Assembly: GCA_963806005.1 (NCBI GenBank)
Contig: CAWDWJ010000008.1
Location: 276,531 to 340,530, forward strand
Length of the DNA: 64,000 nucleotides
Source of the DNA: Vulcanimicrobiota bacterium
Lineage (GTDB): Bacteria > Vulcanimicrobiota > Vulcanimicrobiia > Eremiobacterales > Eremiobacteraceae
Reading direction: 5' to 3'
Shown here: positions 14,011 to 52,085 of the stretch, in pieces
Position numbering within the stretch: the first letter of the stretch is position 1
Layout: every line of letters begins with the position of its first letter
Position numbers and translations under genes: made by a program
Notes under the pieces: generated by a model
Told to the model about the DNA's origin: nothing
The model's input: the letters and a program-made list of their open reading frames with translations, nothing else
Databases searched by the model: none

Positions 14011-14046
14011 TCGCAGGCATCCCGTCTTCAGCACCGGGAAACGAGC

Positions 14047-14080
14047 GGGCGTCTGGAGTAACCAGACGCCCGACCTTCTT
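14047..14080 (+). terminator. terminator hairpin after 13318-14010
   Basis: 10-bp perfect stem GGGCGTCTGG / CCAGACGCCC with loop AGTAA, followed by a T-rich tract. Confidence 0.6.
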
Positions 14081-14081
14081 T

Positions 14082-14157
14082 GGGGATGTAGCTCAGCTGG
14101 TAGAGCGCTTGCTTCGCATGTAAGAGGCCAGGGGTTCGAGTCCCCTCATCTCCACCA
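14082..14157 (+). tRNA. tRNA-Ala (anticodon CGC), CCA encoded
   Basis: Folded by hand into a 76-nt cloverleaf: acceptor GGGGATG/CATCTCC with the G3:U70 alanine identity pair, D arm GCTC/GAGC, anticodon stem CTTGC/GTAAG, loop TTCGCAT, T arm AGGGG-TTCGAGT-CCCCT. Confidence 0.95.
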
Positions 14158-15986: not shown

Positions 15987-16156
15987 ATGCCCTCCCTTGA
16001 GCCCAGCGGCGTACCGCGCCAAGCGCTACCCGCCATCGGATCAGCCCAATCGTAACCACCAGCGGTAAACGCATCGTAAAATTCAAATCTTTGTACCGCC
16101 TGGCGTGACACGGACATCAACTCTCAAAGCGAAGCCTTGTGGGAGCACCCCATACC

Positions 16157-16221
16157 TGCATCAGGTTCTTGAAGTTAATTCGCATGTAAGAGGCCAGGGG
16201 TTCGAGTCCCCTCATCTCCAC
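16157..16221 (+). repeat. att-like repeat A: tRNA-Ala 3' half (16179-16221) with only about 22 bp of the conserved arm
   Basis: 43/43 identity to tRNA positions 14113-14155. The arm is limited to the CATCAGG..TTAA-proximal part; no heptamer block. Confidence 0.85.
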
Positions 16222-16242
16222 TCTTGGGTTGCGCTTTCGAGT

Positions 16243-19037
16243 CTAGACCTTGAGTGCTTCTTCGACCGCCTGATCTTCCGACCACGCCGCACCTTCGGCC
16301 GCGAGCTTTTCTATCTCCGCTTCGCTCAGCTGATCGCGCAGTGCGGCCATGAGCTTCTCGTGGCCCCACTTCTCCGTGGGCTCACGCTCATACCCACTTC
16401 TTTGTAGTTGCACATCGACGTAGCCGATGAGGCGCGCCGCATCGTGCATGATCTCCGCGCAGCGCCAAGAGCAGCGCAAAATGCTGCAACGCGATCGCGA
16501 TGCCGAGTGCATTTTGCGCTTGCCGCGCCCAGCGCAGACCCTCGCGATGCGGCCTCACGCGCTCCATCGACGTCTCCCAGCGCAATGCGATAGGCAGCGA
16601 TGTTGTATGTAGCTCACCGCCAAGATCGACGCGTTCTTACCACGCGCGTCAGATCTCTAGGGCCTCGCCTGCCAAGCGTAGTGCCTGCTCAACCTGCCCA
16701 TCGGCGAACTCCAACTCCGCGAGATTTCCCAGCACCACAGCTGTGCCCTGCCTCGTTTCCCAGCGCCTTGTACGCTGCAAGCGCCTGCGCATACAACTCG
16801 CGCCCGCGACGACATCGCCGCGAGCCCGCTGGATGCCCGCTCTGCGGATCAGGCAGTCAGCCACTCCCGGTTTATCTCCGTAACTCGCGCATCGCCGCAA
16901 GCGCGCGTGCGTTCACTCACTGGCCTCTTCAAACGGCCCATTTGAAAAAGACCGAAGCGCAAGAATGCAGCGCCCAGGCCTGCCCCATGCTCGTCGCCCA
17001 CCGACTGGTAGAGCGCGAGGGCGCGTTGCAGCGCAGTCGTGCTTGCGCTTGCCGGAGGAAATCTGGCTAAGCGCACGCCACAGCCGGGCCGCCACGTGCG
17101 GGTGGCATCGATTCATCAAGGCTCGCTTGTGCGCAGGCTCGATCCAATAGCGCCCCTCCACCGTGAGTCCGCCACGCAGCCATAGCATCTGCCAGCGCTC
17201 CGGCCACGGCACCACCCAGCGCCACATCGTGTCCGTCTTTGAGCGACCACTCCAACACGGCGCGGTAGTTGTCCAGTTCCCGTTCCACGCTCGCCAGCCA
17301 CGCCGCGGTCGAGCCTGTGCCGAAGCGTCTTATCGGCCTCTTGCGCCTGATCGCGAAAGTACTCGGCGTGACGGCGAGCCAGCTGTTCGCGCTGCGCCAG
17401 CTGCTGTCAGCTTCTCCAGCGCATAGGCGCGCGTGGATTCGAGCAAATGGTAGCGTTCTTGCTCGCCTGCGGTGTCGGCCACGACCAACGACTTGTCGGT
17501 CAGCGATGAGAGCAGGTCTAAGATGTCGATCTCATCGAGGTCCTCGCCGCTGCACACCGCCGTGGCCGCATCCAGACTGAAGCCTCCGGCGAAGATACCC
17601 ACCCGATTGAACAGCATCTGCTCCTGCGGGGTGAGCAGGTCGTAGCTCCAGTCGATGAGCGCGCCGAGCGTCTTCTGCCGCGGGAGTGCCGTGCGGCTCC
17701 CGCCGGTGAGAATCTTGAAGCGTTCGTTGAGCCGTTGGGCGAGGTTCGGGATGCTAAAGACCTTCACCCGAGCGCGGCAAGTTCGATGGCCAGCGGAATA
17801 CCATCCAGACGGCGGCATATGTCGGCGACAATCGGTGCGTTGTCGTCGGTCGAGCGCAAAGGACTTGTCAACCGACCGCGCCCGATCGACAAACAGCGCC
17901 ACCGCGCCAAATTCCATGATCGCTGCCGGCGTGAGATCGGCAATCTTATGCGGCACGTCGAGTGAGGGAAGCCGCAAGTACCTCTTCGCCACTCACCCCA
18001 GCGCCTGGCGTGACGTGGCAAGCAGGCTGCACATCAGGGCAACTGCGGATGATCTGCGTTGGCGATCGCGGCGACAGCTTCCAAGACATGCTCGCAGTTA
18101 TCCAAGATCAGCAGCAGCTTCTTGCGGCTCAGCCACTGCGGAATGGACTCGTCAATTCTGCGGCCCTCGACTTGGGGCATGCCCAATCTCTTTGGCGATA
18201 ACGCTTGAGACGAGTTCGGGGTCGGTGATCGGGCGCAAAGTCGACAAGCCACACGCCATCGGGATTGTGGTCGAGGACTTCGGCTCCCACTTGCAGCGCT
18301 AGCCGCGTCTTGCCGACGCCGCCGGAACCAAAGAGCGTCAGCAGCTTATGCTGACTCAGCAGAGACTTCACTTCTTCAAGGTCGTGCTCGCGACCGCGAA
18401 AGCTCGTCGGCTGAATGGGAAGGTTGTTCGGAATCGTATCGAGTGACTTGAGCGGCGGAAACTCTGCTGGCAGACCTTCGATGGTCAGCTGCCAGACTTG
18501 TTCGGGTTCGGTGAGGTCCTTGAGCCGGTGCGAGCCGAGATCAACCAGCGATGCGCCGGCGGGAAGATCGCTATGGGCTAGTTCGCGGGTGGAACCCGAC
18601 AAGAGAATCTGGCCGCCGTGGCCGATGGACATGAGTCGTGCCACTCGGTTGACGGCCGGTCCGAAGTAGTCGCCGTTACGCTCCGAAGCCTCGCCGGCAT
18701 GCAGCCCGATGCGTACTCGCAAGCCGCCAACTGCAGAAAAATCTTCTTCGCTCAAGGCCCGTTGCGCTTCGAACGCAGCCGCGACAGCATCCGAGACGCG
18801 GGCGAAAGCGACGCAAAACGCGTCGCCAATGGTCTTGAACACGTACCCGTCGTGTTGATCGATCGCATCGCGCTCAAAAGCGCATCATGGCGCTTCACCG
18901 CGTCATCCATCGCCTCGCGCTGCGATCTCCCAACGCTGCGTGGAGCCCTCAATGTCGGTAAAGAGAAACGTGACCGTGCCAGTAGGCAAAGAGACGGGGG
19001 CATTTGCCGCTGGGACTGCCCCCTGGGGGTTGGACAT
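16243..19037 (-). pseudogene. cyclase-STAND(NB-ARC-like)-TPR gene, decayed copy 1
   Basis: Homologous pieces lie in at least five different frame segments: N-terminus MSNPQGAVPAANAPVSLPTGTVTFLFTDIEGSTQRWE from 19037; FKTIGDAFCVAF...GSGGVGKTR in 18129-18842; LLLILDNCEH in 18034-18252; DICRRLDGIPLAIELAA in 17764-18021; C-terminus ...AAWSEDQAVEEALKV ending at 16243. Confidence 0.85.
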
Positions 19038-19192
19038 AGGCGTTGTATTCTGCTGGGGTGCTATTTGCGCCTACCCAACCATGCCGGGCATTGGGGCCAC
19101 ATCGGGCTGGCTCCGACTCATCACGTGAGGCCGTAAAGCTGGCTGAATCTGCGTGCCCGCAAGTTGCGTCCGCGTCACTCCAGTGAGTCTAA

Positions 19193-19365
19193 GCGCACGG
19201 CATATCGTACGGCAATCCCGCCATACCACCAGCAACATTCTGCAACTCCCTGCAACATTCTGCAACATGCGAACGCGCGTGTCATCTGGCGGAGCCTTAT
19301 TTCATCATGGTCCTGCAATTAGTTCGCATGTAAGAGGCCAGGGGTTCGAGTCCCCTCATCTCCAC
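19193..19365 (+). repeat. att-like repeat B: conserved arm (19193-19322) + tRNA-Ala 3' half (19323-19365)
   Basis: Core 43/43 identical to the tRNA. The arm carries GTACGGCAAT and four heptamers at 10-bp spacing (19230-19266). Confidence 0.9.
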
Positions 19366-20015: not shown

Positions 20016-20080
20016 GATACCCTTCCCGTCGCGGTTGGCAGTTTAATCTATGCCGTTCAAACTCACAATACCGATGAACC

Positions 20081-20254
20081 GTACGGCACTCGTACGGCAA
20101 TCCCGCCTTAACACCAGCAACTTTCTGCACATCACAGCAACTTTCTGCAACGGACTAACGTAGAAGCTGCCCGGCGAACCACGATTTCATCAGAGTCTTG
20201 TGTTTAATTCGCATGTGAGAGGCCAGGGGTTCGAGTCCCCCTCATCTCCACCAC
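20081..20254 (+). repeat. att-like repeat C: arm (20081-20207) + tRNA-Ala 3' half (20208-20254)
   Basis: Core differs from the tRNA by one substitution (GTAAGA to GTGAGA) and one extra C in the T stem; identity runs through CCACCAC. The arm has a duplicated CGTACGGCA and the heptamer block. Confidence 0.85.
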
Positions 20255-20317
20255 GGCTCGTCTATCAATGTGCGCCACTATGCAACATGTGAGCGCGGCC
20301 TTGCCTCCACGTTCGCC

Positions 20318-23111
20318 TTAGACCTTGAGCGCTTCTTCGACCGCCTGATCTTCCGACCACGCCGCACCTTCGGCCGCGAGCTTTTCTATCTCGGCGTCCC
20401 TCAGATGCTCGCGCAGTGCGGTCATAAGTTTCTCGTAGCCCCACTTCTCGGTGGCCTCACGTTCCTACCCGAGTTCTTTGTATTGCATATTGACGTAGCC
20501 GATGAGCCGCGCCGCATTGTGCAGTTCGCCGCGCAGCGCCTAGAGCAGCGCGAAATGTTGCAACGCGATCGCGATGCAATATGCAGTTTGTGCTTGTCGC
20601 GCCAAGCGCAGCCCCTCGCGGGCAGCTTCACGCGCTCCATCGCACATCTCCCAGCGCAATGCGATAGGCAGCGATGTTGAGGTAACCAATCGCCAAGTTC
20701 GTCGCGTTCTTCCCACGCGCCAAGATCTCCAGGGCCTCGCCTGTCAGGCGCAGCGCCTGCTCGACCTGACCATCTCGCGAACTCCAGCTCCGCAAGATTT
20801 GCCAGCACCATAGCTGTTCCGGCCTCATTTCCCAGGGCCTTGAATGCGCCGCGAGCGCCTGCGCATACAACTCGCGCGCCGCGACAACATCGCCGCGATC
20901 CCACTGGATGAGCGCCTGCTGACTCAGGCAGTCGGCCACTCCCGGCTTATTCCCCAACGTGCGCATCGCCGCAAGCGCCCGTGTGTTCGCTTCGCTGGCC
21001 TCTTCAAGGTGGCCCATTTGAAAGAGACCAACGCCAGATAGTGTAAAGCGCCCAAGCCGCCCCATCTTGTCGCCTACCGATTCGTATAGCGCGAGGGCGC
21101 GTTGCGCATAGTCGTGCTTGCTCTTGCCCATGGAAAGCGTGGCTGATGCCCGCCACAGCCGGGCCGCTACCTGCGGGTGCACCGATTCGTCAAGGCCAAC
21201 TTGCGCAAGGTCGATCCAATAGCGTCCTTCGGCCGTGAGTCCGCCATCTCGCCAGAGCCGCTCCAGCGCTCCAGCCAGGGCACCACCCAACGCCATATCG
21301 TGTCCATCTTTAAGTGTCCATTCCAGTACGGCGCGGTAGTTGTCCAGTTCCACTTCCGAGTCGCCAGCCACGCCGCCAGTCGATCCCGCTGCCGAAGCGC
21401 TGGTCCGCCCCCTGCGCCTGATCGCGAAAATACTCTCGCGTGGCGGCGAGCCAGCGGTTCTCGTTCGCATGCCGCCATAAGCTTATCCAAAGCATATGCT
21501 CGAGTGCATTCCAGCAAACGGTAGCGTTCCTGCTCGCCTGTCGTGTCGGCCACAACCAGCGACTTGTCGGTCAGTGATGAGAGCAAGTCTAAAATGTCGA
21601 TGTCATCGATGCCCGTCGCCAGCTGCACACCGCCGTGGCCGCATCCAGGCCGAAGCCCCCGGCAAAGATGCCCAAACGGTTGAAGAGCATCTGCTCTTGC
21701 GCGGTGAGCAGGTCGTAACTCCAGTCGATGAGCGCACTCAGCGTCTTCTGACGCGGCAGCGCAGCACGGCTACCGCCGGTGAGGATCTTGAAGCGTTCGT
21801 TGAGCCGCTGGGCGAGCTTCGGGATGCTCAGAATCTTCACCCGAGCGGCTGCCAGTTCGATCGCTAGCGGAATACCATCCAGACGGCGGACAGATTTCAG
21901 CGACGATCGGGTGCATTGTCGTCGGTTAGAACGAAGCGGGTGTCGGATGCGATCGCTCGATCGACAAAGAGTGCGATCGCGCCATAGGCGGATGCTGTTT
22001 CTGCGGAAAGTCCCGCCAGTTGGTTCGGGCAGCGAAAGCGATGGCAAACGGTAGGTAAACACTCGCCACCGATGCCTAGCGCCTGACGTGACGTGGCGAG
22101 GATGCGCACCTTGGCCGCGGTGCTAAGAATCGCTGTGGCAAGTCCGGCCACAGCATCGATCAAGTGCTCGCAGTTGTCGAGAATCAGCAATAGGTGCTTG
22201 CGTTTCAGCCACTGCGGGATAGCCTCCGCAATTTTGCGTCCCCGCTGTTTGGGTGATGCCCACCACTTTGGCGATCAAGCTTGCGACAAGCTCGGGATCG
22301 GTGATTGGAGCCAGATCGACGAACCACGCGCCATCTGGGATACTCGTCTAGCGAGGTCGGCGGCGACTTGCACGGCAACCGCGTCTTGCCAATACCGCCT
22401 GCGCCGGATAGCGTCAGCAGACGGTGTTCACCGATCAATGACTTGACCTCCTCAAGGTCGCGCTCGCGACCGCGGAAGGTCGTGAGGTGTATCGGCAGGT
22501 TATTCGGCGACGCATCGAGTGATCGCAGCGCCGGAAATTCTTGCTGCAGGCCAGCGCCGCTCAGCTGCCATACATGCTCGGGCTCGGCGAGGTCTTTGAG
22601 GCGATGCAAGCCGAGATCGGTGAGCGCGACATCCGCCGGCGAGTCGCTGCGCACTAACTCGCGGCTCGCTCCAGAGACTAAGATCTGCCCTCCATTGCCT
22701 ATGGACAGCAAGCGCGCAACGCGGTTAACGGCTGGGCCGAAGTAATCGCCATCGCGCTCGTCGGCCGTTCCGGTGTGGATCGCCATCCGCACGCTGATGC
22801 CATTGACGCTTGAGAAATCCTCGGCTTTCAAGCGCTCGCTGTGCATCGAGTGCAGCCGCAATAGTATCTTCGGGCCGTCGGAACGCAACACAAAAAGCGT
22901 CGCCGACCGTTTTGAAAACAAACCCATGATGATGTTCGGTTGCCGTTCGCATAAGCGCATCATGGCGCGCGACTGCAACCTTCATCGCCTCGCGCTGGGT
23001 CTCCCAACGTTGCGTCGAGCCCGTGATATCCGTAAACAGAAACGTGACCGTGCCAGTAGGTAAAGTTACGAACTTCTTGGATTTCTCTTTCGCCCCACTC
23101 GCGCGTGGCAT
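20318..23111 (-). pseudogene. cyclase-STAND(NB-ARC-like)-TPR gene, decayed copy 2
   Basis: N-terminus MPRASGAKEKSKKFVTLPTGTVTFLFTDITGSTQRWE at 23111. Homologous pieces are spread over ORFs 22725-23111, 22205-22978, 21897-22190, 21589-22062, 21167-21628, 20628-21470 and 20422-20904. There is also an in-frame TAG at 20465-20467 where copy 1 has TAT. Confidence 0.85.
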
Positions 23112-23336
23112 GAGGGTCAGGGTTCGGCTGTGTGGAGGTCGAGCCCTAGTCTATGGAGCCGGCGCCGGGCTAGGCGGAGCGACTAAGACCCTGTTCTGCT
23201 TACCAAAAACGCGGAGGCACCGCGTGAGGGTCTCGGCTCGACATGAACATCATTATCCATATTTGAATCTTCGAGACGCCAGGGCCCAATTGGGAGAGCA
23301 GGGCGGATGATTTCTGTACCAGCAGTACTAACTCGG

Positions 23337-23509
23337 GCGCACGGCATATCGTACGGCAATCCTACCTAAACACCAGCAACTTTCTGCACATTACTGCAAC
23401 ACTCTGCAACATGCGAACGCCCGTGCTAGGTGAAAAAGCTCGGTTTCATCAGGGCCGCGTAATTAATTCGCATGTAAGAGGCCAGGGGTTCGAGTCCCCT
23501 CATCTCCAC
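23337..23509 (+). repeat. att-like repeat D: arm (23337-23466) + tRNA-Ala 3' half (23467-23509)
   Basis: Core 43/43 identical to the tRNA; arm collinear with B, E, F and G. Confidence 0.9.
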
Positions 23510-23567: not shown

Positions 23568-23687
23568 TCAGACCTTCAGCGCTTCTTCGACCGCCTGATC
23601 TTCCGACCACGCCGCAACTTCTCTCGCAAGCTTTGCGAATTCAGCGTCTCTGAGCTTCTCCCGCAGCTGGGCCATCAACTTGACCGC
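23568..23687 (-). pseudogene. orphan 3' tail (last ~39 codons) of a former cyclase-STAND gene
   Basis: Encodes AVKLMAQLREKLRDAEFAKLAREVAAWSEDQAVEEALKV-stop, collinear with the C-termini of copies 1 and 2. Lies out of frame behind and under the end of the intact gene 23641-26460. Confidence 0.75.
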
Positions 23688-26460
23688 AGACAGCGAGGGC
23701 TTCTTCAAGGGCCTGCTCTTGCGACCAAACTGCGCCCTCGGTCATGAGGGCTGCAAAACGCACTTCTCCAAGTTGATCGCGCAGCGATCCTATTAAAGCA
23801 TCAATATCCATAGGAACGCGTCTTGTCTCGCGCACCCAGCCCTTGCTGTCCGCTTTCCTGTAACCCAGGAGCTTCGCCGCCCGATCAAGGTCACGGTCGT
23901 GTGCTGCGAGGGCTATGCACGGCTGCAGCGTTACTTCACGCGCGTCGAGCACCTCATCGCGAAGGATTCGCAGGGCGCTGCGCATGGCCGACCGAGCCTC
24001 ATCAAAGCGTTCCGTCAAAGTGAGGTACGCGGCCTTGGCACTGAATATGAGCGCTTCCATGTCGTTTTCGTGGAGCGTCTGCACTATGGCTAGCGCTTCT
24101 TCCGTCAGCTCGAGCGCCCGGGGCACATCATTCGTCGCTTTCTCCAACGCCGCTTCATCCAAGAGCATGATCGCCAGGTTGCGGTCAACCCCCCGCTTCT
24201 TGTAGTAGCGTAATGCGGCGGCGAAGTGGTGCCTCGCGAGTTCGAACTGTTTTGTGTGCGTGTACAGTTTGGCCAACTGCTGCAGCGAGGCTGTTTCACG
24301 ATAAATGTCATGAGCGCGCCGAGCAGCGTCGAGCGCCTCGGTCAATGCTGATTTCGCTTCGTCAAGCCGGTCATATGTTGTGTTCATTTCACCAAGATAA
24401 AAGAGGGCTCGGGCCAATATACGGTCATCCCCAAGCTTACGCGCTGCAGCTACAGCACGTTCGATGGTGGTTTCGTAGACCTCGTCTTCCGAGAGAGCTA
24501 TATGCGTGCGCGTCAGCGCTAAATCGATGGCAACGCTCAAACCAGGGTTACTGTCTGGCGCGATGCTCGCGCGTGCCGCTTCCAGCCAGTGCCGGCCTTC
24601 CAGTTTGTGACCAATCCAGTAAGCCCAGAGGTGTTCGGCAATTTCCGCTCCCAGGGCGCGATCGTTGCCTTGATCTAAGCACCATTGCAAGGCGGCGCGG
24701 ATATTGTCCAGCTCGGCTTCAATGAAGGCCAACCAGGCGGGCGCTGGGAGCACTTGCCACCGCTCGGCGATCTGAAGCGCGTATCTCGCGAAAAAGCGTG
24801 CGTGCCGCTGGGACGTTGCGTCGAATTCTGCTTGCCTTCGCACGAGCTCCAACCCGTATTGACGCAAAGACTCCAGCAACCGGTAGCGCTGCGTCTCGGC
24901 GCCAGCATCAACCGTGACGAGTGATTTATTAACGAGCGATGATAGAATGTCGAGGATCTTAAACTCGTCAATTGTCTCGTCCGAACAGACGTCACTCGCC
25001 GCTTCGAGCGTCCAGCCGCCTTGGAAGATGGAGAGACGGCGGAAGATCGTTCGTTCAGCCTCGTTGAGCAGCTCGTAGCTCCAGTCGATTGCTGCGCGCA
25101 TGGTCTGCTGGCGCGGGAGAGCCGTGCGATCGCCCCCGGTCAGCAACCGGAAACGCTCATCCAAACGTTGTGACAGTTGCTTGAGATTGAGAATGGTCAC
25201 ACGGGCAGCCGCCAGTTCTATTGCCAAAGCGATGCCGTCCAGACGGCGGCAAATGTCGGCGACGATCGGCGCCGCATCGTCGGTGAGCATGAACCGCGCG
25301 TCAATCGCTGCAGCTCGCGCCACAAAAAGGGCCACAGCCTCATGTTTGAGGGCCTCTTCTGCCGACAACGCGACATTACGGGAAGGCACGGATAACGAAG
25401 GCATACGGTAGACCTGCTCGCCCCGCACGTTGAGAACTTCGCGGCTCGTTGCGAGCACCGCCACCCTCGGACAATTCTTGACCATAGCTGCCACCACGCG
25501 CGCCGTCTCGCCGACGATATGTTCGCAGTTGTCGAGGATAAGCAAGAGGCTCTTGTTCTTGAGGTACAAGCAGAGGTCGTCCAGAGGCTTGCGCACCGGT
25601 TGCAGTTGCAGGTCGAAGACCTCAGCGATTGCGCTCACAATCCCGTCGTCGGTTCCCATTTGGGCGAGGTCGACGAACCAAACGCCATCACCGGATCCGT
25701 CAAGCACATCTGCTCCTACCTGCAGCGCCGTACGAGTCTTTCCTACTCCTGCAGTACCAACAAGCGTCAGCACTTGAGATTTGGCGAGCAGCGACTTGAT
25801 GTCGCTTAGCTCATGCTCGCGACCAACAAAAGGAGTCGCCTGGCGCGGAAGATTGTTCGGTAGCGTCTCAAGCGAGCGCAGCGATGGAAAAATTTCTTCA
25901 AGTCCGGGCGCGACCAACTGGTATACGTGCTCGGGGCGGACGAGATCGCGCAGCTGATGCTGGCCGAGGTCCCGAACGCCGGACTGTGCAGGCATCAATC
26001 CTTGTAGCAGATCGGTCGCGGCTTGGGAAATGAGCACCTGGCTGCCATGACCGATCGCCAAGAGTCGCGCGACCCGGTTGACCGGTGGCCCGAAATAATC
26101 TCCGTCACGTTCTTGCGCGGTCCCCGTGTGGATCGCCATGCGCACGCGTATACCCTCCACCGAAGCGAAATCTTCAACGCTGAGTTCGCGCTGTGCATCT
26201 ATGGCCGCCGCTATGGCGTCTTGTGGCCGCGCAAAGGCGACACAAAACGCGTCGCCCACCGTCTTGAACACCCAACCGCGATACTTTACCGCGGCTGCGC
26301 GCAGCAGCTCGTCGTGGCGCTTTACTGCCGCTTCCATAGCCTCGCGGTGCTGCTCCCAACGCTGCGTCGAGCCTTCGATGTCGGAAAATAGAAAGGTCAC
26401 GGTACCCGTCGGTAGAGTGACGGGGCCTTTGGGCTCGGCCCCACTCTCGGGTGGCATCAT
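23641..26460 (-). CDS. class III adenylate/guanylate cyclase - STAND (NB-ARC-like P-loop NTPase) - TPR protein, intact (module 5 cargo)
   Basis: Start taken at MMPPESGAEPKG (26460) by alignment with the paralogs. Cyclase motifs FSDIEGSTQRWE, FKTVGDAFCVAF, GDYFGPPVNRVARL. Walker A GTAGVGKTR, Walker B LLLILDNCEH. About 400 aa of TPR-like helical repeats. Confidence 0.85.
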   Translation of the reverse strand: MMPPESGAEPKGPVTLPTGTVTFLFSDIEGSTQRWEQHREAMEAAVKRHDELLRAAAVKYRGWVFKTVGDAFCVAFARPQDAIAAAIDAQRELSVEDFASVEGIRVRMAIHTGTAQERDGDYFGPPVNRVARLLAIGHGSQVLISQAATDLLQGLMPAQSGVRDLGQHQLRDLVRPEHVYQLVAPGLEEIFPSLRSLETLPNNLPRQATPFVGREHELSDIKSLLAKSQVLTLVGTAGVGKTRTALQVGADVLDGSGDGVWFVDLAQMGTDDGIVSAIAEVFDLQLQPVRKPLDDLCLYLKNKSLLLILDNCEHIVGETARVVAAMVKNCPRVAVLATSREVLNVRGEQVYRMPSLSVPSRNVALSAEEALKHEAVALFVARAAAIDARFMLTDDAAPIVADICRRLDGIALAIELAAARVTILNLKQLSQRLDERFRLLTGGDRTALPRQQTMRAAIDWSYELLNEAERTIFRRLSIFQGGWTLEAASDVCSDETIDEFKILDILSSLVNKSLVTVDAGAETQRYRLLESLRQYGLELVRRQAEFDATSQRHARFFARYALQIAERWQVLPAPAWLAFIEAELDNIRAALQWCLDQGNDRALGAEIAEHLWAYWIGHKLEGRHWLEAARASIAPDSNPGLSVAIDLALTRTHIALSEDEVYETTIERAVAAARKLGDDRILARALFYLGEMNTTYDRLDEAKSALTEALDAARRAHDIYRETASLQQLAKLYTHTKQFELARHHFAAALRYYKKRGVDRNLAIMLLDEAALEKATNDVPRALELTEEALAIVQTLHENDMEALIFSAKAAYLTLTERFDEARSAMRSALRILRDEVLDAREVTLQPCIALAAHDRDLDRAAKLLGYRKADSKGWVRETRRVPMDIDALIGSLRDQLGEVRFAALMTEGAVWSQEQALEEALAVCGQVDGPAAGEAQRR

Positions 26461-26630
26461 TGTTCGACTTCGCGTTTCTGCGGATGGAGGCCTAGTAGAC
26501 CCCACGCCTAGGCAGGGCGCACAACGCACAGGACACCCGTAAGGCCACGCAGGTAATCGTGTAATGCTCTTCTAGGCAGCTATTCAAATTGGGCTTGAGA
26601 GCTGGCGCGCTCGTGGCCGGAGCGTTCTAC

Positions 26631-26800
26631 GCGCACGGCATTTGTACGGCAATCCCGCCCCAACACCAGCAACTCTCTGCAACTTACTGCAACATTCTGC
26701 AACGTGCGAACACAGATGCTATCTGGCGGAGCTCGATTTCATCAGGGTCCGGGAATTGATTCGCATGTAAGAGGCCAGGAGTTCGAGTCCCCTCATCCCC
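26631..26800 (+). repeat. att-like repeat E: arm (26631-26759) + degenerate tRNA-Ala 3' half (26760-26800)
   Basis: Core has CAGGGG to CAGGAG and CATCTCC to CATCCCC changes, then diverges. Arm is intact with four heptamers. Confidence 0.85.
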
Positions 26801-26902
26801 GTCATCCCAAGCCTTTGTGACGATAAGTTCTCGCGCTGCGCTCAATGCGAACTTGTTTTGCTATAGTGAGCTTAGTGTAGGTGGAGTTGGTATCCACTAC
26901 CA

Positions 26903-27865: not shown

Positions 27866-28012
27866 GGGCGTTTCTCCTTCTGGTAAATTTACTTTACTTG
27901 ATTATTGTAAACGCCATTTACTAAAATGTCAAGACTCAAGGGTGGACCCGACTATCCCAGGGCTTCCGCGAAGTGAAAGCTTGCCTCGAACTTGGGAGCT
28001 GCGGACGGCTAG

Positions 28013-28184
28013 CCGTACTGCAATTGTACGGCAATTGCTCCGTAACACCAGCAACGTTCTGCAACTTACTGCAACATTCTGCAACGAGCGCACGCCCGTG
28101 CTATCTGAAAAAGCTCGATTTCATCAAGGTCGCGTAATTGATTCGCATGTAAGAGGCCAGGGGTTCGAGTCCCCTCATCTCCAC
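28013..28184 (+). repeat. att-like repeat F: arm (28013-28141) + tRNA-Ala 3' half (28142-28184)
   Basis: Core 43/43 identical to the tRNA; arm contains GCAATTGTACGGCAATTGC and the heptamer block. Confidence 0.9.
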
Positions 28185-32810: not shown

Positions 32811-32989
32811 CGAGAGCCCTCCGGTCGTCAGGGACGTTAGACGGTGTTCAGCGCCTTCCTGGCCGTTTGCGCGCTAATCCAAGTCAGGCTCTAACCAGAG
32901 GCGGTTTATTACGCTGGGCTTAGGATCGCAGGCGCGTCAGCTCGCGACCCGAACTGCTGGCAAGACATAGCCGGGCAGTAGTGCCTCGC

Positions 32990-33163
32990 GCACTGCAAAT
33001 TGTACGGCAATTGCTCCATCATACCAGCAACTTTCTGCAACTTACTGCAACACTCTGCAACAGGCAAACACCCGTGCTATCTAGCAAAGCTCGATTTCAT
33101 CAGGGTCCTGGAATTAGTTCGCATGTAAGAGGCCAGGGGTTCGAGTCCCCTCATCTCCACCAC
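32990..33163 (+). repeat. att-like repeat G: arm (32990-33117) + tRNA-Ala 3' half (33118-33163)
   Basis: Core identical to the tRNA through CCACCAC (46 bp). Heptamer block at 33025-33061. Confidence 0.9.
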
Positions 33164-35182: not shown

Positions 35183-35243
35183 GATACCCTCCCTGTCGCG
35201 GTTGGCGGTGGGGTCTAGGTTCACACGCACAATACCGATGAAC

Positions 35244-35282
35244 CGTGCGGCAATCCCGCCATAACACCAGCAACTTCTGCAG
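35244..35282 (+). repeat. truncated arm remnant H (no tRNA core)
   Basis: CGTGCGGCAATCCCGCCATAACACCAGCAACTTCTGCAG matches the gene-proximal start of arms B-G, then breaks off inside the heptamer block. Confidence 0.6.
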
Positions 35283-35503
35283 ATTTATACGGGCGTGATA
35301 CATCCGTACGGGGAAACCCTGTAACAAAACACAAGATAGCTGAGTGGAACTCGCACCGCCTGTCGATACGGTCGCTCGCAAGCCAGATCTTGTGTTATTT
35401 TCGGAGCTGGCGCCGCCGGCGTCGGCAATCTTCCGGTTACACTGGCCACTCCAGATCCGACTGGTAAAGACCACCTTAAGGCGTACCCTAGAAAGGCAAT
35501 GAC

Positions 35504-36187
35504 ATGGCGGATTCAAGCATCCTGATGCCCGGCGCCAGCGAGGCGTATCGTCAGTCGCGCGATCGACTGCGCAGCGCGGAGATCGAATTGCGCGACCGGA
35601 TCGAAGAGGTCGCTACGATGCGGCGCAGCCTGCCGCCGGGTCCGGTCGTCCCCGACTACGAGTTCATCGAAGGCGGCAAGCGCGTTCGTTTGTCCGAGCT
35701 GTTCGCAGACGGCAAGCCCTACTTGATCCTCTATCACCTGATGTACTGGGCGAACGACGATAGCTTCTGTCCGATGTGCTCGCTCTGGATCGACGGGTTT
35801 AACGGTATCGCGCCGCACGTAACGCAGCGGGCAAACTTCGTCATCGCGTCGCGCGCGCCGGTCGATAAATTGCAAGCTTGGGGCGCCCACCGCGAGTGGC
35901 ATCGCCTGCGCCTGCTTTCGGACGATGGTCCGGCGTTCGCGCGTGCCATCGATGCCGAAGATGCCGACGGCAACCCGGATTCGACGATCGTCGTCTTCGC
36001 AAAGGACGGCGACAAGGTGCGCCATGTCTACACGGCCCATCCTATGCTCGAAGACCGCGAGCGCGGGATCGACTTGCTCTGTCCCGTCTGGCATCTTTTC
36101 GACCTCATGCCGTCCGGCCGCGGCGACTGGTATGGTTCCAATGATGGTTTCGACGCCTCGTTGCGGGCGCTGGCAGCCAAAGCATGA
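35504..36187 (+). CDS. DUF899 thioredoxin-fold protein
   Basis: Family pattern: AEIELRDRIEEVATMRRSLPPG ... YHLMY ... CPMCSLWIDGFNG. Confidence 0.75.
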   Translation: MADSSILMPGASEAYRQSRDRLRSAEIELRDRIEEVATMRRSLPPGPVVPDYEFIEGGKRVRLSELFADGKPYLILYHLMYWANDDSFCPMCSLWIDGFNGIAPHVTQRANFVIASRAPVDKLQAWGAHREWHRLRLLSDDGPAFARAIDAEDADGNPDSTIVVFAKDGDKVRHVYTAHPMLEDRERGIDLLCPVWHLFDLMPSGRGDWYGSNDGFDASLRALAAKA

Positions 36188-37227: not shown

Positions 37228-37322
37228 GCTCTCCTAAGAGCTCACCTCCCCCTACGCCCCTAGTCCTGCGTCCTGAGAAGTTGGGGTTCGATTCCCTCTC
37301 CACTCGAAAAATAAGTCTGATA

Positions 37323-43998: not shown

Positions 43999-44224
43999 TA
44001 CCGTGTCAGTGCGGTGGATACCTCGGAGCGATTCTCGTCGTGAAGGCCGCGCGCGTCGTCGAGGAGACCGAGCTCTCGAACGACATCGCGGTGCACAAGC
44101 GCCGCCCGAGCCTCGCGCTTCCCAAAGCCCAACGGGTTAGAACTCCGCACAGCCCGCAACGTGCCTGCGTTTGGCGCGAGCCAGGCCGAGGGTCCTGCGG
44201 GTGGGCGGTTGAAGCCCTGAAGCG

Positions 44225-47005
44225 ATGCCACGTGCCAGCGGAGCCAAGCCCAAACCGAAGAAAACCGTGCCGTTGCCAAGCGGCACGGTCAGCTTTCTGT
44301 TCACCGATATCGAAGGCAGCACGCGACGCTGGGAGTCCCACCGCGACCAGATGCAGCACGCCGTCGCCCGGCACGACAAGCTGCTGCGAGCGGCAAGCGC
44401 AAAGCACGGCGGCGTGGTGTTCAAGACCGTCGGCGACGCGTTCTGCGTGGCGTTTCGGCGGCCGGAGGACGCGCTCGGCGCCGCGCTCGACGCGCAGCGG
44501 GCTCTCGGGGAAGAAGATTTCACAGGCGTCGACGGCTTGCGCGCTCGCATGGCGATCCACACCGGAACGGCGGACGAACGCGACGGCGACTACTTCGGCC
44601 CGACGGTGAATCGCGTCGCGCGGCTCCTCGCTGTCGGCCACGGCGGACAGGTGCTCGTCTCAGGGACGTCGGCGGATCTGCTGCAGGGATCGATGCCGGC
44701 GCGCACGAGCCTGCGCGATCTCGGCGAGCATCTGCTGCGCGATCTCACCCGCCCCGAGCAGGTCTATCAACTCGTCTCTCCCGGACTGCCCGAGATATTT
44801 CCCGCGCTACGCTCGCTCGGCGCGCTGCCCAACAATCTGCCGCGCCAAGCGACGAGTTTCATCGGACGCGACGAGGAGCTTGCCGAGATCAAGACGCTCG
44901 TCGCCAAGTCGCAGCTCGTGACGCTTGTAGGGACGGGCGGCGTCGGCAAGACTCGTGCGGCCTTGCAAGTGGGCGCGGATCTGCTCGACGGCTCGGGTGA
45001 CGGCGTGTGGTTCGTCGACCTCGCGCAGGTCGCCGGCACGTCGTACGTCATTCCAGAGATCGCACGCGTCTTCAGCATCCAGCCGCAGGCGGACCACGAC
45101 TTTCTCGATGACTTGCGCTTCTATCTAAAGGGCAAGCATCTGCTCCTCATCATCGATAACTGCGAGCACGTGGTCGCTGAAGCCTCGCGGGTGATCTCCG
45201 AGCTGATCAAGACGTGCCCTCGCGTCTACGTGCTCGCTACCAGCCGTGAAGGCCTCAACGTGCACGGCGAACATGTCTACCGCATGCCGTCACTGTCCGT
45301 GCCCTCGCCCCTTGAAAAGCCGGACGCGGAGGCGGCATTACGCTATGGCGCCGTCGCGCTCTTCGTCGCGCGCGCCTCTGCGCTGGATTCCCAGTTCTCG
45401 TTCACCGATGAGAAAGTACCGATCGTGGCTGACATCTGCCGCCGGCTCGACGGCATCGCGCTCGCGATCGAGCTTGCGGCCGCGCGAGTGACGATCCTCA
45501 GCCTCAAGCAACTGTCGCAGCGGCTTGACGAGCGTTTCCGCCTGCTCACAGGCGGCGATCGCACGGCGCTCCCGCGGCAACAGACGATGCGCGCCGCCAT
45601 CGATTGGAGCTACGAGCTACTCTCGGAAACCGAACAGACGGTCTTCCGCCGGCTCTCCATCTTCCAGGGCGGGTGGACACTTGAGGCAGCCTCCACGGTC
45701 TGTTCGGACGATTCACTCGATGAGTTCGCGATCTTCGACACCATGTCGCTCTTGGTGAACAAATCCTTGGTGGTAGTGGAGTTCAGCGCTGAGACCCAGC
45801 GCTATCGCCTGCTCGAGTCCTTGCGGCAATACGGCCTGGAGCGGCTGAATCAGCGCACCGAAGTCGACGTCATCGGCCGCCGCCACGCACAGTACTTCGC
45901 GGAGTTCGGCCGGCGGATCGGTGAGAAGTGGCAGACGATGCCGGATGTCGTCTGGCTGGCCGCCATCGACGAGGAGATCGACAACATCCGCGCGGCGCTC
46001 AGCTGGAGCCTGGAAAAGGGAAACGATCCCACGCTCGGCGCCAGGCTCGCCGAACAGTTATGGGTGTTCTGGTTTGGCCGCAGCCCTCACGAGGGCAAGC
46101 GCTGGATGGAAGCAGCCCGGGCCGCGGTGGATGCCGAGCCCGATCCTGTCTTGAGTCTCGACATCGATCTAGCCCTGACGCGCTTGCGTGTCGGACGTTC
46201 GCGGGAAGAGACGCTCGCGCTGTGCGAGCGAGCACTCACTGAGGCACGAGCACTCGGGGATGAGCGCAGGCTCGCCCGAGCGGTCTTCTACTGGGGCGAG
46301 GTGCTGGTCTTCGAAAATCGATGCGGCGAGGCGGAGGTGGCCTTGACCGAAGCGCTCGAGCACTCGCGAAATGTCGGCGATCAATACCGCGCGACGTCCG
46401 CTCTGCAGATACTCGGCAAGGCATATGTGCGGCTCGGACGTGTCGATGAGGCGCGCAAGGCCTTCAACGAGGCCATGCGGTACTACGGGGTACATTCGGC
46501 CGAACGGAATCACGCGCTGGCGCTCATCGATAATGCGAACTTGGAAAGGGTGAGCGGCGACCCGGAACGCGCCATCGCCTTGACGCTCGAGGCGCGGAAG
46601 ATCGCGCAGATCCTGCGCGATCGCAATCTCGAGATCATCGCGGAAGCCGCTTCTGGTTGGCACTCGTTGCTCACTGGGCAGTTCGACACCGCGCGGGCGG
46701 CGGCCCACAGATATCTGACGATCAGCATCGAGGAGCGTTTCGAATATGGGGTCGCGACCGCCGTTCAGTCGCTTGGCGGCATCGCCGTTCACGATGAGGA
46801 CTTCGAGCGAGCTGCCCTGCTGCTCGGGTACTCTGAAGCAAACGTACAGAAATTCTTCGCAAGAAACCCGTGGGTCGACTTCGACGTGGAGTCGTTTCTG
46901 GGGCCCTTGCGCGAGCGGCTCGGCGAGGAGGCGCTCGCTGCGCTTATGGCCGAGGGGGCCGCTTGGCCTCAAGAGCGGGCCGTCGAAGAGGCCTTCAAGG
47001 TCTGA
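44225..47005 (+). CDS. class III adenylate/guanylate cyclase - STAND (NB-ARC-like) - TPR protein, intact, outside the array
   Basis: MPRASGAKPKPKKTVPLPSGTVSFLFTDIEGSTRRWE; FKTVGDAFCVAF; Walker A GTGGVGKTR; Walker B LLLIIDNCEH; canonical tail AAWPQERAVEEAFKV-stop. No att-like repeat on either flank. Confidence 0.9.
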   Translation: MPRASGAKPKPKKTVPLPSGTVSFLFTDIEGSTRRWESHRDQMQHAVARHDKLLRAASAKHGGVVFKTVGDAFCVAFRRPEDALGAALDAQRALGEEDFTGVDGLRARMAIHTGTADERDGDYFGPTVNRVARLLAVGHGGQVLVSGTSADLLQGSMPARTSLRDLGEHLLRDLTRPEQVYQLVSPGLPEIFPALRSLGALPNNLPRQATSFIGRDEELAEIKTLVAKSQLVTLVGTGGVGKTRAALQVGADLLDGSGDGVWFVDLAQVAGTSYVIPEIARVFSIQPQADHDFLDDLRFYLKGKHLLLIIDNCEHVVAEASRVISELIKTCPRVYVLATSREGLNVHGEHVYRMPSLSVPSPLEKPDAEAALRYGAVALFVARASALDSQFSFTDEKVPIVADICRRLDGIALAIELAAARVTILSLKQLSQRLDERFRLLTGGDRTALPRQQTMRAAIDWSYELLSETEQTVFRRLSIFQGGWTLEAASTVCSDDSLDEFAIFDTMSLLVNKSLVVVEFSAETQRYRLLESLRQYGLERLNQRTEVDVIGRRHAQYFAEFGRRIGEKWQTMPDVVWLAAIDEEIDNIRAALSWSLEKGNDPTLGARLAEQLWVFWFGRSPHEGKRWMEAARAAVDAEPDPVLSLDIDLALTRLRVGRSREETLALCERALTEARALGDERRLARAVFYWGEVLVFENRCGEAEVALTEALEHSRNVGDQYRATSALQILGKAYVRLGRVDEARKAFNEAMRYYGVHSAERNHALALIDNANLERVSGDPERAIALTLEARKIAQILRDRNLEIIAEAASGWHSLLTGQFDTARAAAHRYLTISIEERFEYGVATAVQSLGGIAVHDEDFERAALLLGYSEANVQKFFARNPWVDFDVESFLGPLRERLGEEALAALMAEGAAWPQERAVEEAFKV

Positions 47006-47029: not shown

Positions 47030-47944
47030 GTGAACACCATGCAGACTCAAGCGCCCTCTATCTCTGAGATCTTCGGGCCCGCCGGGTGGCGAGACGGCCG
47101 GCGCGACGTCGCCCTCCACCTTGCGGACCAGATGCTGACCCACCACTGGCACGTCGATCAGCTGTCGTGGAGCACGCTGCCGCCGCTGCCTATCCCCAGC
47201 GACCGCAGCGACACGCGCAAGCTCGTGCGCTTCTACAAATCGGTGGTCGCCGTGCAGACGAGAGCGGAGGAGATCGCCGTCTCCATCGCGCGGCGCCTGC
47301 TCGTGTATGCCAACGAGGAGCGGCTCGAGGTTTCGTTCCGACGAGCGCTTGGCGCACTGCTCAACGACGAGGCGTCGCACGTCGCCACCATGCTCAAGCT
47401 CGAGATGCTCGCCGATGTGACGTATCCCGGCGTGTCGGCTCGACCGGATGAGAGCCCGTTGTTCGAAGCGCTCATGCCCGCCATCGAGACGCTCGAACCG
47501 GCCGTGCTCGCCGTCTTCATGGCCTCCTATGAGGCCTCGGTCGCGATCCGTTCCTACCAGGAGCAGCAGACCTACCGGATGCCCTCCATACTCTCGGAGA
47601 TGGGCGCACATGCCGCTGAGGACGACGGCCGACATGCGAAGACTTTGCGCGTCGTCGCCCACGAGTTCTTGCAGCTCTTCCGCTCGCGCTATGGCGACGA
47701 CGAGCGGGGCACGTCGCCGGAGTGGCGCGCGCGCATACTGGAACCGTTCAGCCGTTTTTGGACATTGATGCCCGCCCATGAGTTCTACCTCGCAGGCAGC
47801 GATCGCCGTCAGCTCCGCCACGTGCGCGAGCTCGTGGCGCACGATATCGCGATCATGACGAGGATCCTCGACTTCCTGGGCGTGTCGGCCGAGGCGCAGG
47901 ATTATGGCCAGGTCAAGGCCATCGCGGATCTCTTGCCGGCGTAG
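47030..47944 (+). CDS. ferritin-like (putative di-iron carboxylate) protein
   Basis: Helical protein with two E-x-x-H-type motifs (NDEASH, AEDDGRH). 24 nt downstream of the cyclase-STAND gene on the same strand. Confidence 0.5.
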   Translation: MNTMQTQAPSISEIFGPAGWRDGRRDVALHLADQMLTHHWHVDQLSWSTLPPLPIPSDRSDTRKLVRFYKSVVAVQTRAEEIAVSIARRLLVYANEERLEVSFRRALGALLNDEASHVATMLKLEMLADVTYPGVSARPDESPLFEALMPAIETLEPAVLAVFMASYEASVAIRSYQEQQTYRMPSILSEMGAHAAEDDGRHAKTLRVVAHEFLQLFRSRYGDDERGTSPEWRARILEPFSRFWTLMPAHEFYLAGSDRRQLRHVRELVAHDIAIMTRILDFLGVSAEAQDYGQVKAIADLLPA

Positions 47945-47956
47945 CGGGCGCGCCGC

Positions 47957-49956
47957 TTAATCGTCTCGTATGCTTTGCGCGAGGTGGCCGCTCCAGCGGT
48001 AGAGGCCGAAGATGACCAGCGCGAACGAAATCCCGCCCAGCCACACCGCCGTGGGGCCGAAGGCATCGCCGACGACGGCGAACGGATTGGCGTTGCTGCT
48101 GGCGACGATGACGCCGGCGAGCAGGACGCCGAAGAGGCTTTCGCCGACGATGGAACCCGACGCGACGAGCACGCCCATGCGCCGGGCCACGTCCGGGTTG
48201 GGCCGTTTCGCGGCTCCAGCGATTGTAGATCCAGCCGACGACGGCGCCGAGCACCGCCGCCGAGGTCGTCGCCGCCGGCAGATAGATGCCCAGACCCACG
48301 GCGAGCGGCGGGAGCTGGAAGCGCGTCCGGGCACGAAGCACCTCATCGACCGCGATGACGCCCAGGCCGATCAACGCACCGGTGCCGATCAAATCCCAGC
48401 GGATCTGTCCTTCGATCACTCCCTTGGCTAGCGCCGAGATGAGCGTCGCTTGCGGCGCCGGCAGCGCGCAGTGCGGGCCGCCGCTGAAGCCGTATGCTTT
48501 GTTGAGCAGATCGAGGATCGGCGGGATCACGATCGAGCCAAAGATCACGCCGGCGATGAGCGACACCTGCTGCCGCCACGGCGTCGCGTCGACGAGCTGA
48601 CCGGTCTTGAGGTCTTGCAGGTTGTCGTTCGAGATCGTCGCGACGTTGAGCAAGACGGCGGTGATGAAGAGCGCATACGCGACGAGCGCCGGTGCTCCGC
48701 TCACTCCGGCGCTCTTGGCGACGGCGAGCACGAGCAGCGCCGCCCCGATGACGCTGAGGATGCCCAGGCCGGAGACCGGGCTGTTCGACGCACCGATCAA
48801 GCCGGCCATGTATCCGCATGCCGCCGCGACCAAGAACCCGGCGAACACCACGTAGATCACACCGGCGGCGACGAGCGGCACGCCGAGCGACATGACGGGC
48901 GTGCCGTGCAGGAAGATCGTGAACAAGAACGCGAGCGGAACGAAGCACGCCAGGCTGATGAGCGCGACGGTCGTGATGGGCAGATCCCGTTCCGTGCGTG
49001 GCAGAGCGCTGCGATCGCCGTGCAGGGCGGAATGGCGCGATGCAGCGATCGACGACATGATCCCCGTGTAGACCGGTCGCACGAGCCGGCCGAGCGTCCA
49101 GATCGCGGCAGATGCCGATCGTGCCGGCGCCGATGAAGCGGACCTGATGGGCCCAGACGGCGATCGCCACGTCGGCCGGCGCTCCAGCGATCGGATGCAG
49201 CGCGGTGAGCAACGGCGTCACAGACGCCCCAGGCGATCACAAGACCGGCGAGGATCGCAAGACCCGACCGAGAGACCGATCAGGTGGCCGGCGCCGACCA
49301 GCGCGAGCGACAAGCCGACGCCAAACCCGGTCGCCCCGGCCCCGACGCGGAAATAGCGCGGCCACTGTGTCGGTGAAGAGACGCGCGTGCGACGACGGAG
49401 CGCAAAGCCCGCTGACGCGAGCGAGCCGATCGACGAGAGCGAGCAGACCACGCGCGGTTCTGCTCGACCGAGCCGCCGTCTCGCCGCGCGACCCGACGCC
49501 GACCTTCAGCACTTCGGCGGCGGCGACGCCTTCGGGATACGGCAGATCGGATTTCGTGACGAGCGCGCGCCGCAGCGGCACGCTGTACATCACGCCCAGG
49601 ATGCCGCCGATCGCACAAACCGCGAACGACTGCCAGATACGGGAAGCCCGTCCACCAGCCGACCATGACGAGACCGGGCAGCACGAAGATGATCGCCGAC
49701 AGCGTGCCTGCCGCCGAGGCGACCGTCTGCACGATGTTGTTCTCGAAGATCGTCGCGTTCTTGAAGGCTCGAGCACCGCCATCGAAATGACGGCGGCGGG
49801 AATCGATGAGGCGAACGTCAGGCCGACCTTGAGCCCGAGATAGACGTTAGCGGCCGTGAACACGAGCGTGATCGCGGCGCCGAGCAGTATCCCACGCCAG
49901 GTGAGCTCGAGGCGGAAATCATCGGTCGTGTTGGGCGGCCCGGTCGTCGCGGCCAC
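47957..49956 (-). pseudogene. OPT-family oligopeptide transporter, multiply frameshifted
   Basis: N-terminus at 49956 (LTWRGILLGAAITLVFTAANVYLGLKVGLTFASSIPAAVISMAVL). Continuation is found in ORFs 49280-49732, 49237-49956, 47913-49082 and 47957-48346, in different frames. At least four frame changes. Confidence 0.8.
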
Positions 49957-50016
49957 GTGCAGACTCCCCCGGCAAGAACAACCCGACGGTCCGAGTAAGA
50001 CCGTGCGGCAGGTGCG

Positions 50017-51947: not shown

Positions 51948-52085
51948 ATCTGGAGAAGAAACGAACGATTCGTGAAGGCTTCGGCAATCGTCGCTCGGCC
52001 GGTCGGCTCGGCCCGGAACCTAGGCCCGTGTTTGAGCGCTCGAAACGGAGTGCCCGCCGATGCCCGTCGTGCGTATGATGGGACT

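Follow-up and report, generated by a model that had tools for sequence, protein, structure and literature searches.

The 64-kb window analysed here, that is the whole stretch of DNA at positions 276,531 to 340,530 of contig CAWDWJ010000008.1 (assembly GCA_963806005.1, Eremiobacterota/Vulcanimicrobiota), harbours a single real tRNA gene, the functional tRNA-Ala(CGC) on the forward strand at 14082-14157 (ARAGORN; Rfam 69.4 bits; alignment with the partial copies described below). This gene is the attB-equivalent anchor of an array of small gene cassettes extending over approximately 23 kb (14156-37303), and the subject of the analysis is a sequence of approximately 130 bp, termed the arm, that recurs within the array directly to the left of partial copies of the tRNA gene and carries four heptamers phased at 10 bp. 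Seven copies of the 3' part of tRNA-Ala, identified by repeat finding and pattern search, lie downstream of the gene and share with it a 43-bp core (TTCGCATGTAAGAGGCCAGGGGTTCGAGTCCCCTCATCTCCAC; 14113-14155 in the tRNA gene, TTCGCATG...CTCCAC), which extends from the first base of the anticodon loop to just past the discriminator base and ends before the CCA, itself retained in two of the seven halves only. The cores set off nine units of 0.8-5 kb, and the GC content drops from approximately 65-68% to 51-61% between 14 and 38 kb. The flanks of the array are fixed by the empty site of a related locus (L153) and by synteny with another (L125).

Six collinear arms, all on the forward strand, start at positions 19193, 20078, 23337, 26630, 28012 and 32988, measure 173 nt together with the tRNA part and are 69-84% identical in pairwise comparison; a sequence-only reading of the window had described the same six left arms and seven tRNA halves, with coordinates that agree to within 1-3 bases. 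The arm from which the analysis started, the sixth copy (32988-33117), abuts its core at 33118 and displays ACTGCA (32992-32997), GTACGGCAAT (33002-33011), the heptamers at 33025-33031, 33035-33041, 33045-33051 and 33055-33061 and the proximal segment TTTCATCA (33095-33102), followed by a tRNA half (33118-33160) without mismatches over the 25-nt T-arm/acceptor segment at 33138-33162. Arm and half of the other copies occupy 19193-19365 (arm 19193-19322, heptamers 19230-19266, half 19323-19365), 20078-20251 (heptamers 20115-20151, 1-nt insertion in the half), 23337-23509 (heptamers 23374-23410), 26630-26802 (heptamers 26667-26703, acceptor end of the half mutated) and 28012-28184 (heptamers 28049-28085).

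The heptamer pattern CWGCAAC-N3-CTGCAAC-N3-CTGCAAC-N3-CTGCAAC is present in all six arms and nowhere else in the 64 kb, with 0.00 occurrences expected from 100 shuffles. The quartet previously claimed for every arm is nevertheless perfect in four of them only, as two arms deviate by 2-3 mismatches (second heptamer CTGCACA; in the arm at 20078 also third heptamer CAGCAAC). Similarly, of the one or two GTACGGCAAT-type repeats said to precede the heptamers, each window arm has one perfect copy, whereas the second copy, 11-12 bp upstream, is degenerate (ACGGCA or ACTGCA). Measured from the core, this pair is located at about -126 and -116 and the four heptamers at -93 to -57, and the proximal TTTCATCA segment is almost invariant. 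A CAGG..CCTG inverted pair, equally proposed at the outset, is not conserved among the arms (for example CAGGGCCGCG and CAAGGTCGCG) and is no feature of the family.

Besides the full-length sites, a short-armed site at 16156-16221 consists of the core-proximal approximately 25 nt (CATCAGGTTCTTGAAGTTAA) and a half (16179-16221), corresponds to positions 110-171 of the arm profile only and is devoid of heptamers and GTACGGCAAT; it closes the first cassette, and this different closing site suggests a second element family on the same core. Two distal sites on the forward strand had escaped the sequence-only reading. One is a truncated eighth arm (35243-35286), in which GTGCGGCAAT, heptamer 1 and the beginning of heptamer 2 give way to unrelated DNA; it closes the duplicate of the cupin cassette. 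The other, a degenerate tRNA half (GGGGTTCGATTCCCTCTCCAC; 37283-37303), is the last of the array and marks its distal end, after the gene for an SGL (SMP-30/gluconolactonase-like) protein. The L125 homologue of this SGL cassette is closed by a full arm and half.

The cargo genes of the nine units, all on the minus strand as far as 35.3 kb, are mutually unrelated except for three paralogous cyclase/STAND/TPR genes and the repeated cupin gene. C1 (14156-16221) codes for two proteins of unknown function; C2 (16222-19365) and C4 (20252-23509) each contain a fragmented cyclase-STAND-TPR gene and C5 (23510-26802) an intact one of 962 aa; C3 (19366-20251) contains a cupin gene and C6 (26803-28184) genes for a MarR protein and a cupin; C7 (28185-33160) codes for an unknown protein, a P-type ATPase and a di-haem cytochrome c, C8 (33161-35286) for an alpha/beta hydrolase and a cupin and C9 (35287-37303) for a DUF899 protein and the SGL protein. 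As the assemblies are metagenome-assembled genomes (MAGs), fragmented open reading frames (ORFs), in the two cyclase-STAND cassettes as well as in the right-flank genes for the OPT-family transporter and a P-type ATPase, may in part result from indels of the assembly and not be true pseudogenes.

Because the genes are minus-strand, each window arm is positioned upstream of the cassette to its left, 14-180 bp before the first gene. The two copies of the duplicated cupin cassette agree in upstream sequence and in arm subtype, which assigns the arm to the left-hand cassette. The tRNA half to the right of each arm is the older, displaced half, a geometry as expected from a circle composed of half, genes and arm that recombines with the tRNA gene inside the anticodon loop.

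Syntenic loci were retrieved via the conserved chromosomal YedY-like gene just upstream of the tRNA gene and their arms were located with an nhmmer profile. At least six further Eremiobacterota assemblies have the arm with these motifs after their tRNA-Ala gene; arms are borne, among others, by ENA ERZ25039552 contig_23115, ERZ25039491 contig_15771, GCA_030948685.1, GCA_019234545.1 and DAINRU01. In an alignment of 13 non-redundant arms, derived from genomes in which the flank protein is 55-86% identical to that of the window, little or no variation is seen in heptamers 1, 3 and 4, the GTACGG core of GTACGGCAAT, its ACGGCA-type partner, TTTCATCA and some isolated positions. The complete GTACGGCAAT decamer has single substitutions in three of these arms (L125a, L124a and w28122), the final two bases of heptamer 2 are variable, the 3-nt spacers are conserved to approximately 0.7-0.9 and the remaining arm to approximately 0.5-0.8. 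Last heptamer and core are always 56 bp apart, with a 1-nt deletion in the L127 arm as the sole exception, and the L145 arm is shorter by precisely one 10-bp unit, a loss that leaves the phasing intact. Arms of one genome are not closer to each other than to the arms of other genomes.

The heptamers and GTACGGCAAT are also kept in arrays found without specifying them, in answer to the concern that the repeats might be peculiar to the window. A junction pattern (CATCA-N11-TT-NN plus core start), in which the heptamers were not specified, matched only two contigs in a set of 185,579 species genomes, each from an Eremiobacterota/Vulcanimicrobiota MAG and each with a full arm including heptamers and GTACGGCAAT.

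The related loci display the site in different states of occupancy. In L153 the site is empty and the tRNA gene runs directly into the amino-acid permease gene that is found at 38.6 kb in the window. A single cassette closed by arm and half is present in L125/L126 (SGL), L127, L145 and L148; the L127 cassette contains the gene for a PDZ-containing 604-aa protein and is followed by the ancestral terminator. At least two cassettes are present within the 8 kb covered of L001, four in L124 and a degenerate site in L140, and the more distant relatives L139, L141-144 and L149-150 have variable genes after the tRNA gene and no arm. The halves of L125 and L148 share host- or lineage-specific substitutions with the tRNA of their own genome (GGTC in both and, in L148, also the AATCC variant of the T-loop), as a half displaced from the host gene should. 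Proximal sites are intact and distal ones truncated or degenerate.

Movement of the cassettes is most evident from L001 and L124, two loci from different studies with chromosomal flanks that are 73.7% identical in DNA and 65% in protein. They have in common a 3156-bp block of 99.4% identity, which starts within one tRNA half, stops 5 bp beyond the following one and contains the gene for a 925-aa cyclase-STAND protein (916/925 residues identical) together with its arm. A second common cassette, for a beta-propeller protein (93% DNA and 90% protein identity), is inserted after the real tRNA gene in L001 and after the third half in L124 with an identical junction (CTCCAC|CACTCTCAAAG...). In the same direction, the SGL genes of the window and L125 are 87.6% identical with flanks at approximately 72%, and the DUF899 protein of the window (35504-36187) is 92% identical to that of L139 (17338-18018) with a neighbouring YedY-like flank protein identical to 53% only; in L139 the DUF899 gene is located in a variable region downstream of tRNA-Ala in which arms are not detectable. 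The near-identical cassettes, their shuffled order and the failure of the arms to group by genome show that core-bounded units, cut precisely at the cores, are exchanged horizontally in an integrase-less form.

The reading that best accommodates these observations, and which is considered probable, is that the arm represents the element-borne (P) arm, of the attP/attR type, of an approximately 175-bp site composed of arm and 43-bp tRNA-Ala core, by which cargo-only cassettes are mobilised by a recombinase acting in trans. The recombination context of the arm, as proposed by the sequence-only reading, is well supported by the tRNA core, the empty, single and multiple states of the locus and the core-bounded mobile cassette, while the binding of an integrase or of a recombination directionality factor (RDF), as suggested there, is presumed; the phased heptamers would serve as sites for protein oligomers, either of the arm-binding domain of an integrase or of an RDF.

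In such a mechanism, cassettes of 0.8-5 kb would insert into the segment from the anticodon loop to the 3' end of tRNA-Ala(CGC) in Eremiobacterota. In the presumed circular form, the core would be followed by the tRNA 3' half, the gene or genes and the arm, which closes the circle at the core. This circle would recombine with the tRNA gene or with any of the halves already present, whereby the half of the incoming cassette would restore the tRNA and the displaced half would come to lie to the right of the cassette's arm. Serial insertion would stack the cassettes, with the oldest, distal sites decaying. The recombinase provided in trans would most likely be a heterobivalent tyrosine integrase acting on the anticodon-stem-like core (TTAR-TTCGCAT-GTAA) and the proximal TTTCATCA segment, with the anticodon loop between the imperfect inverted repeat TTAR/GTAA as the putative crossover region. 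The ACGGCA/GTACGGCAAT pair and the four heptamers on one face of the helix may bind the arm-binding domain of the integrase and/or a head-to-tail oligomer of the directionality factor and so shape the recombination complex. The four heptamers span 37 bp, which fits four protomers at approximately 10 bp each.

Tentatively, the locus may even be considered an integron-like capture platform, in which a recombinase encoded at another place in the genome or on a rarely sampled helper element inserts, excises and shuffles promoter-bearing cassettes of 1-5 kb at tRNA-Ala(CGC) and the heptamers nucleate a protein filament. If so, it would constitute a second, independently evolved cassette-array system, so far found only in uncultured Eremiobacterota.

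Several observations weigh against a trans-mobilised site. No integrase, Xis/RDF, resolvase or transposase family (Phage_integrase, Resolvase, Recombinase and rve included) was found among the array ORFs, the flank ORFs scanned in the window and the genes called in related loci, nor among 128 additional stop-to-stop segments of at least 65 aa, taken outside intact annotated genes between 13.8 and 38.9 kb; as no recombinase family was found in the DNA examined, the key enzyme is hypothetical. The distal array end of L124 has neither a terminal arm nor an integrase. In classical lambda-type attP sites, arm sites are found on both sides of the core; here the arm motifs do not recur to the right of the cores and the conserved repeats are one-sided. 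An excised circle or an empty-site polymorphism was not directly observed. The arm was found in no phage or viral contig, as three viral-contig scans gave chance matches in coding DNA only and a blastn comparison with 50,697 phage and 72,556 plasmid records remained without a match. As the spacers between the heptamers are also fairly conserved, the conservation of the heptamers may partly reflect recent common descent rather than selection as binding sites.

The candidates for a recombinase among the proteins of the loci were rejected. The 348-aa and 443-aa proteins of unknown function have signal-peptide-like N-termini and are read as secreted. Neither the 218-aa nor the 216-aa unknown gave a hit in Pfam, PHROG or NCBIfam, and neither recurs in the other arrays. 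Beside the L145 site, a 768-aa HTH_29/HTH_32 protein (HTH, helix-turn-helix) is a fusion of a transposase-HTH fragment with a PDZ/multi-pass membrane protein; its matches, a 598-aa protein of L145 and a 604-aa protein of L127, have weak PDZ hits only.

That arm and half are inert scars, namely attR leftovers of integrative elements such as prophages or islands which have lost their integrase module, with similarity due to ancestry, would explain why no recombinase was found in any array, why distal sites decay visibly and why two of the three cyclase-STAND cassettes are fragmented, and remnants of this kind have been described for tycheposons and Dehalococcoides (bioRxiv 10.1101/2020.12.28.424599; PMC3146451). 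This explanation is unlikely, though, as the 3.16-kb integrase-less cassette, 99.4% identical between flanks of 74% identity, ends at cores and points to a recent move in cargo-only form, as not one of the approximately 20 cassettes seen contains an integrase fragment, and as the motifs are invariant in spite of a flank protein identical to 55-65% only. A different order of cassettes between genomes and arms that are closest to those of other genomes are equally not anticipated for scars. Less probable still is a role in transcription control, with the heptamers as operators of an OmpR/PhoB- or MarR-type winged-helix regulator for the opposite-strand gene 14-180 bp to the left and an incidental link to the tRNA half. 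Direct 7-mers with 10-bp phasing are typical for winged-helix regulators, and the arms of the window do closely precede the minus-strand gene with which their cassette begins. However, the same arm precedes unrelated genes, its distance to the core is fixed and that to the gene start is not, and in L125 and L126 the SGL gene is located on the other strand, which places the arm downstream of the gene. A promoter inside the arm was rejected, as the arms contain no conserved sigma-70-like site and the best promoter-like sites are cassette-specific and located between gene and arm.

An RNA gene, in which arm and half would form an approximately 175-nt RNA with a tRNA-like 3' domain (T arm, 3' acceptor strand and CCA), is very improbable. 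The 3' part is tRNA-like and tmRNA-type Rfam families scored below threshold on that part only (23 bits versus a gathering score of 47), but no Rfam family reached its threshold, the minimum free energy (MFE) z-score is -0.6 on both strands, the RNAalifold covariation term is +0.4 with a compensatory change in one of 28 pairs, the 5' acceptor strand is absent and CCA is rare among the halves; moreover, a 10-bp unit could be cleanly lost in L145. The folding result also dismisses a hairpin or attC-like fold of the arm site. The least probable explanation, equally raised by the sequence-only reading, regards the repeats as iterons, the replication origin of an excised cassette circle. Four phased direct repeats are superficially alike to iterons and the MarR-like protein has weak winged-helix hits to replication-initiator families; these hits, though, reflect generic winged-helix similarity and concern one cassette only, the cassettes are without a rep gene, 7-bp repeats at 10-bp spacing are unlike the usual iterons of approximately 20 bp, and an AT-rich unwinding region or DnaA boxes were not noted in the arm sequences. 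An end of an insertion sequence (IS) or of a miniature inverted-repeat transposable element (MITE) was discarded, as the arm has no inverted-repeat partner and the array no transposase; a known element or non-coding RNA, which had been named at the outset as an alternative, was not matched in the Rfam, inverted-repeat, phage and plasmid checks. Nor is the arm coding: one frame is open in nine of 12 arms and broken by 1-nt indels or stops in the other three, and a repeat period of 10 bp, not being a multiple of three, cannot be kept at the protein level. A protein-database search with the translated open frame, performed for spurious ORFs, gave three matches, all on short contigs, and an exact look-up of the cupin cassette protein found it not on record.

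With respect to known systems, the locus is of the same kind as ssrA and tycheposon islands, arising by serial site-specific insertion at a tRNA-like gene. In Dehalococcoides, approximately half of the tandem islands at the tmRNA gene ssrA are without an integration module, and these were proposed to be cis-mobilizable and to move in cis or trans; a module with the serine recombinase DsiB is found in 16 islands, and the islands have a 20 bp repeat with an adjacent 15-bp conserved motif (PMC3146451). As in these islands, the units described here are stacked downstream of one tRNA-like gene, are bounded by direct repeats of its 3' end and have a conserved motif just upstream of each repeat. Unlike them, no cassette or genome fragment examined contains a recombinase, the site combines a 43-bp core and a 130-bp arm with two classes of phased direct repeats, and the units (0.8-5 kb) are much smaller. 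Tycheposon islands of Prochlorococcus grow by repeated integration into a tRNA gene, which leaves partial tRNAs and pushes older elements distally (bioRxiv 10.1101/2020.12.28.424599). Partial tRNAs, distal displacement and the accumulation of degenerated elements and cargo are common to both, whereas the tycheposon hallmark genes (a deep-branching tyrosine recombinase and a replication or packaging module) are absent from the cassettes, a long conserved arm beside the partial tRNAs is not reported there and the host phylum is different. What sets the locus apart from known tRNA islands is the lack of a recombinase in the cassettes of all arm-bearing assemblies examined, the cassette size of the units and the long, structured and one-sided arm.

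The architecture of the arm has a published counterpart in lambda-type attP sites. ICEMlSymR7A has a tRNA-targeting attP of 283 bp with five 10-bp arm-type sites for IntS, on which RdfS, the directionality factor, covers a segment of 40 bp as a tetramer (PMC11963761). A tRNA-derived core with short direct repeats 60-130 bp away is common to both, and the approximately 40-bp stretch of the arm might, by analogy, seat four head-to-tail winged-helix protomers. At variance with lambda-type attP, no integrase gene is adjacent and the repeats are on one side only. On the other hand, the array resembles integrons in its small, mostly co-oriented cargo cassettes with one site each, no recombinase inside and a fixed anchor, and in cassettes that are common to and shuffled among genomes. 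Unlike in integrons, no intI is located by the anchor, which is a tRNA gene with conserved housekeeping genes as upstream neighbours, the cassettes appear to hold their own promoter-like sequences, and the site, in contrast to attC, is not an imperfect palindrome and has neither hairpin potential nor inverted repeats. As for a tRNA-gene att site, the core is identical to the 3' segment of the target over 43 bp and forms direct repeats around the insert, an empty site exists in L153, and an integrase encoded by the element is missing. As for cis-mobilizable elements (CIMEs), flanking sites and recombinase-free units are present and the 99.4% identical block indicates mobility of the unit; a helper was not identified.

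If the cassettes are indeed mobilised in trans, Eremiobacterota, a phylum widespread in soil and the cryosphere and to our knowledge without cultured genetic tools, would own a compact, tRNA-anchored system for the exchange of signalling (cyclase-STAND), metal-transport, redox and regulator genes among lineages. The sharply defined site of approximately 175 bp could offer a handle for the search for the recombinase, for tracking transfer in metagenomes and possibly for integration tools. Should the sites be relics, the locus would still represent a clean case of island growth through serial integration into a tRNA gene.

Some minor observations concern the repeats and the array. A metagenome scan with the heptamer pattern retrieved 120 loci, none with a tRNA half, and was dominated by an unrelated 10-bp satellite, (CTGCAACACA)n, which forms long tandem arrays, contains the heptamer CTGCAAC (L004-L123; Ga0105050-55, Ga0209390, Ga0335396/8 and others), has no relation to the arm and probably derives from a eukaryote in a few samples. 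In L145, a lone copy of the distal double motif (ATACGGCAAATCGTACGGCGAT; 8590-8612) is located 65 bp to the right of a core with no heptamers following; either another truncated arm has left it behind or it is a right-side arm site of a rare kind. In a more distant relative (L141-L143), an AbiEii/AbiEi toxin-antitoxin pair directly follows tRNA-Ala at a distance of approximately 300 bp, with neither arms nor tRNA halves, and tRNA-Ala is therefore an insertion hotspot for other elements too.

Within the window, C1, the cassette nearest to the tRNA gene, has the lowest GC content (51-54%) and codes for a 218-aa and a 348-aa protein, neither with a family match and the latter with the signal-peptide-like N-terminus. 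Four paralogous adenylate-cyclase/STAND-NTPase/TPR genes are found at 16222-19136, 20252-23150, 23641-26529 and 44213-47005, three in cassettes, two of which are broken into 4-6 ORFs, and one chromosomal; the family is very large in Eremiobacterota, with E <= 1e-30 for all but three of 8000 scored word-sharing candidates. In the right flank, the OPT-family transporter (47913-50016) and P-type ATPase (50017-52019) genes are each split into two or three ORFs, which are pseudogenes or assembly frameshifts, and the OPT homologue of L125 is intact. Directly upstream of tRNA-Ala, at the end of the YedY-like gene, a strong terminator-like hairpin of 11 pairs (9 G-C) with a T-rich tail is located at 14046-14072.

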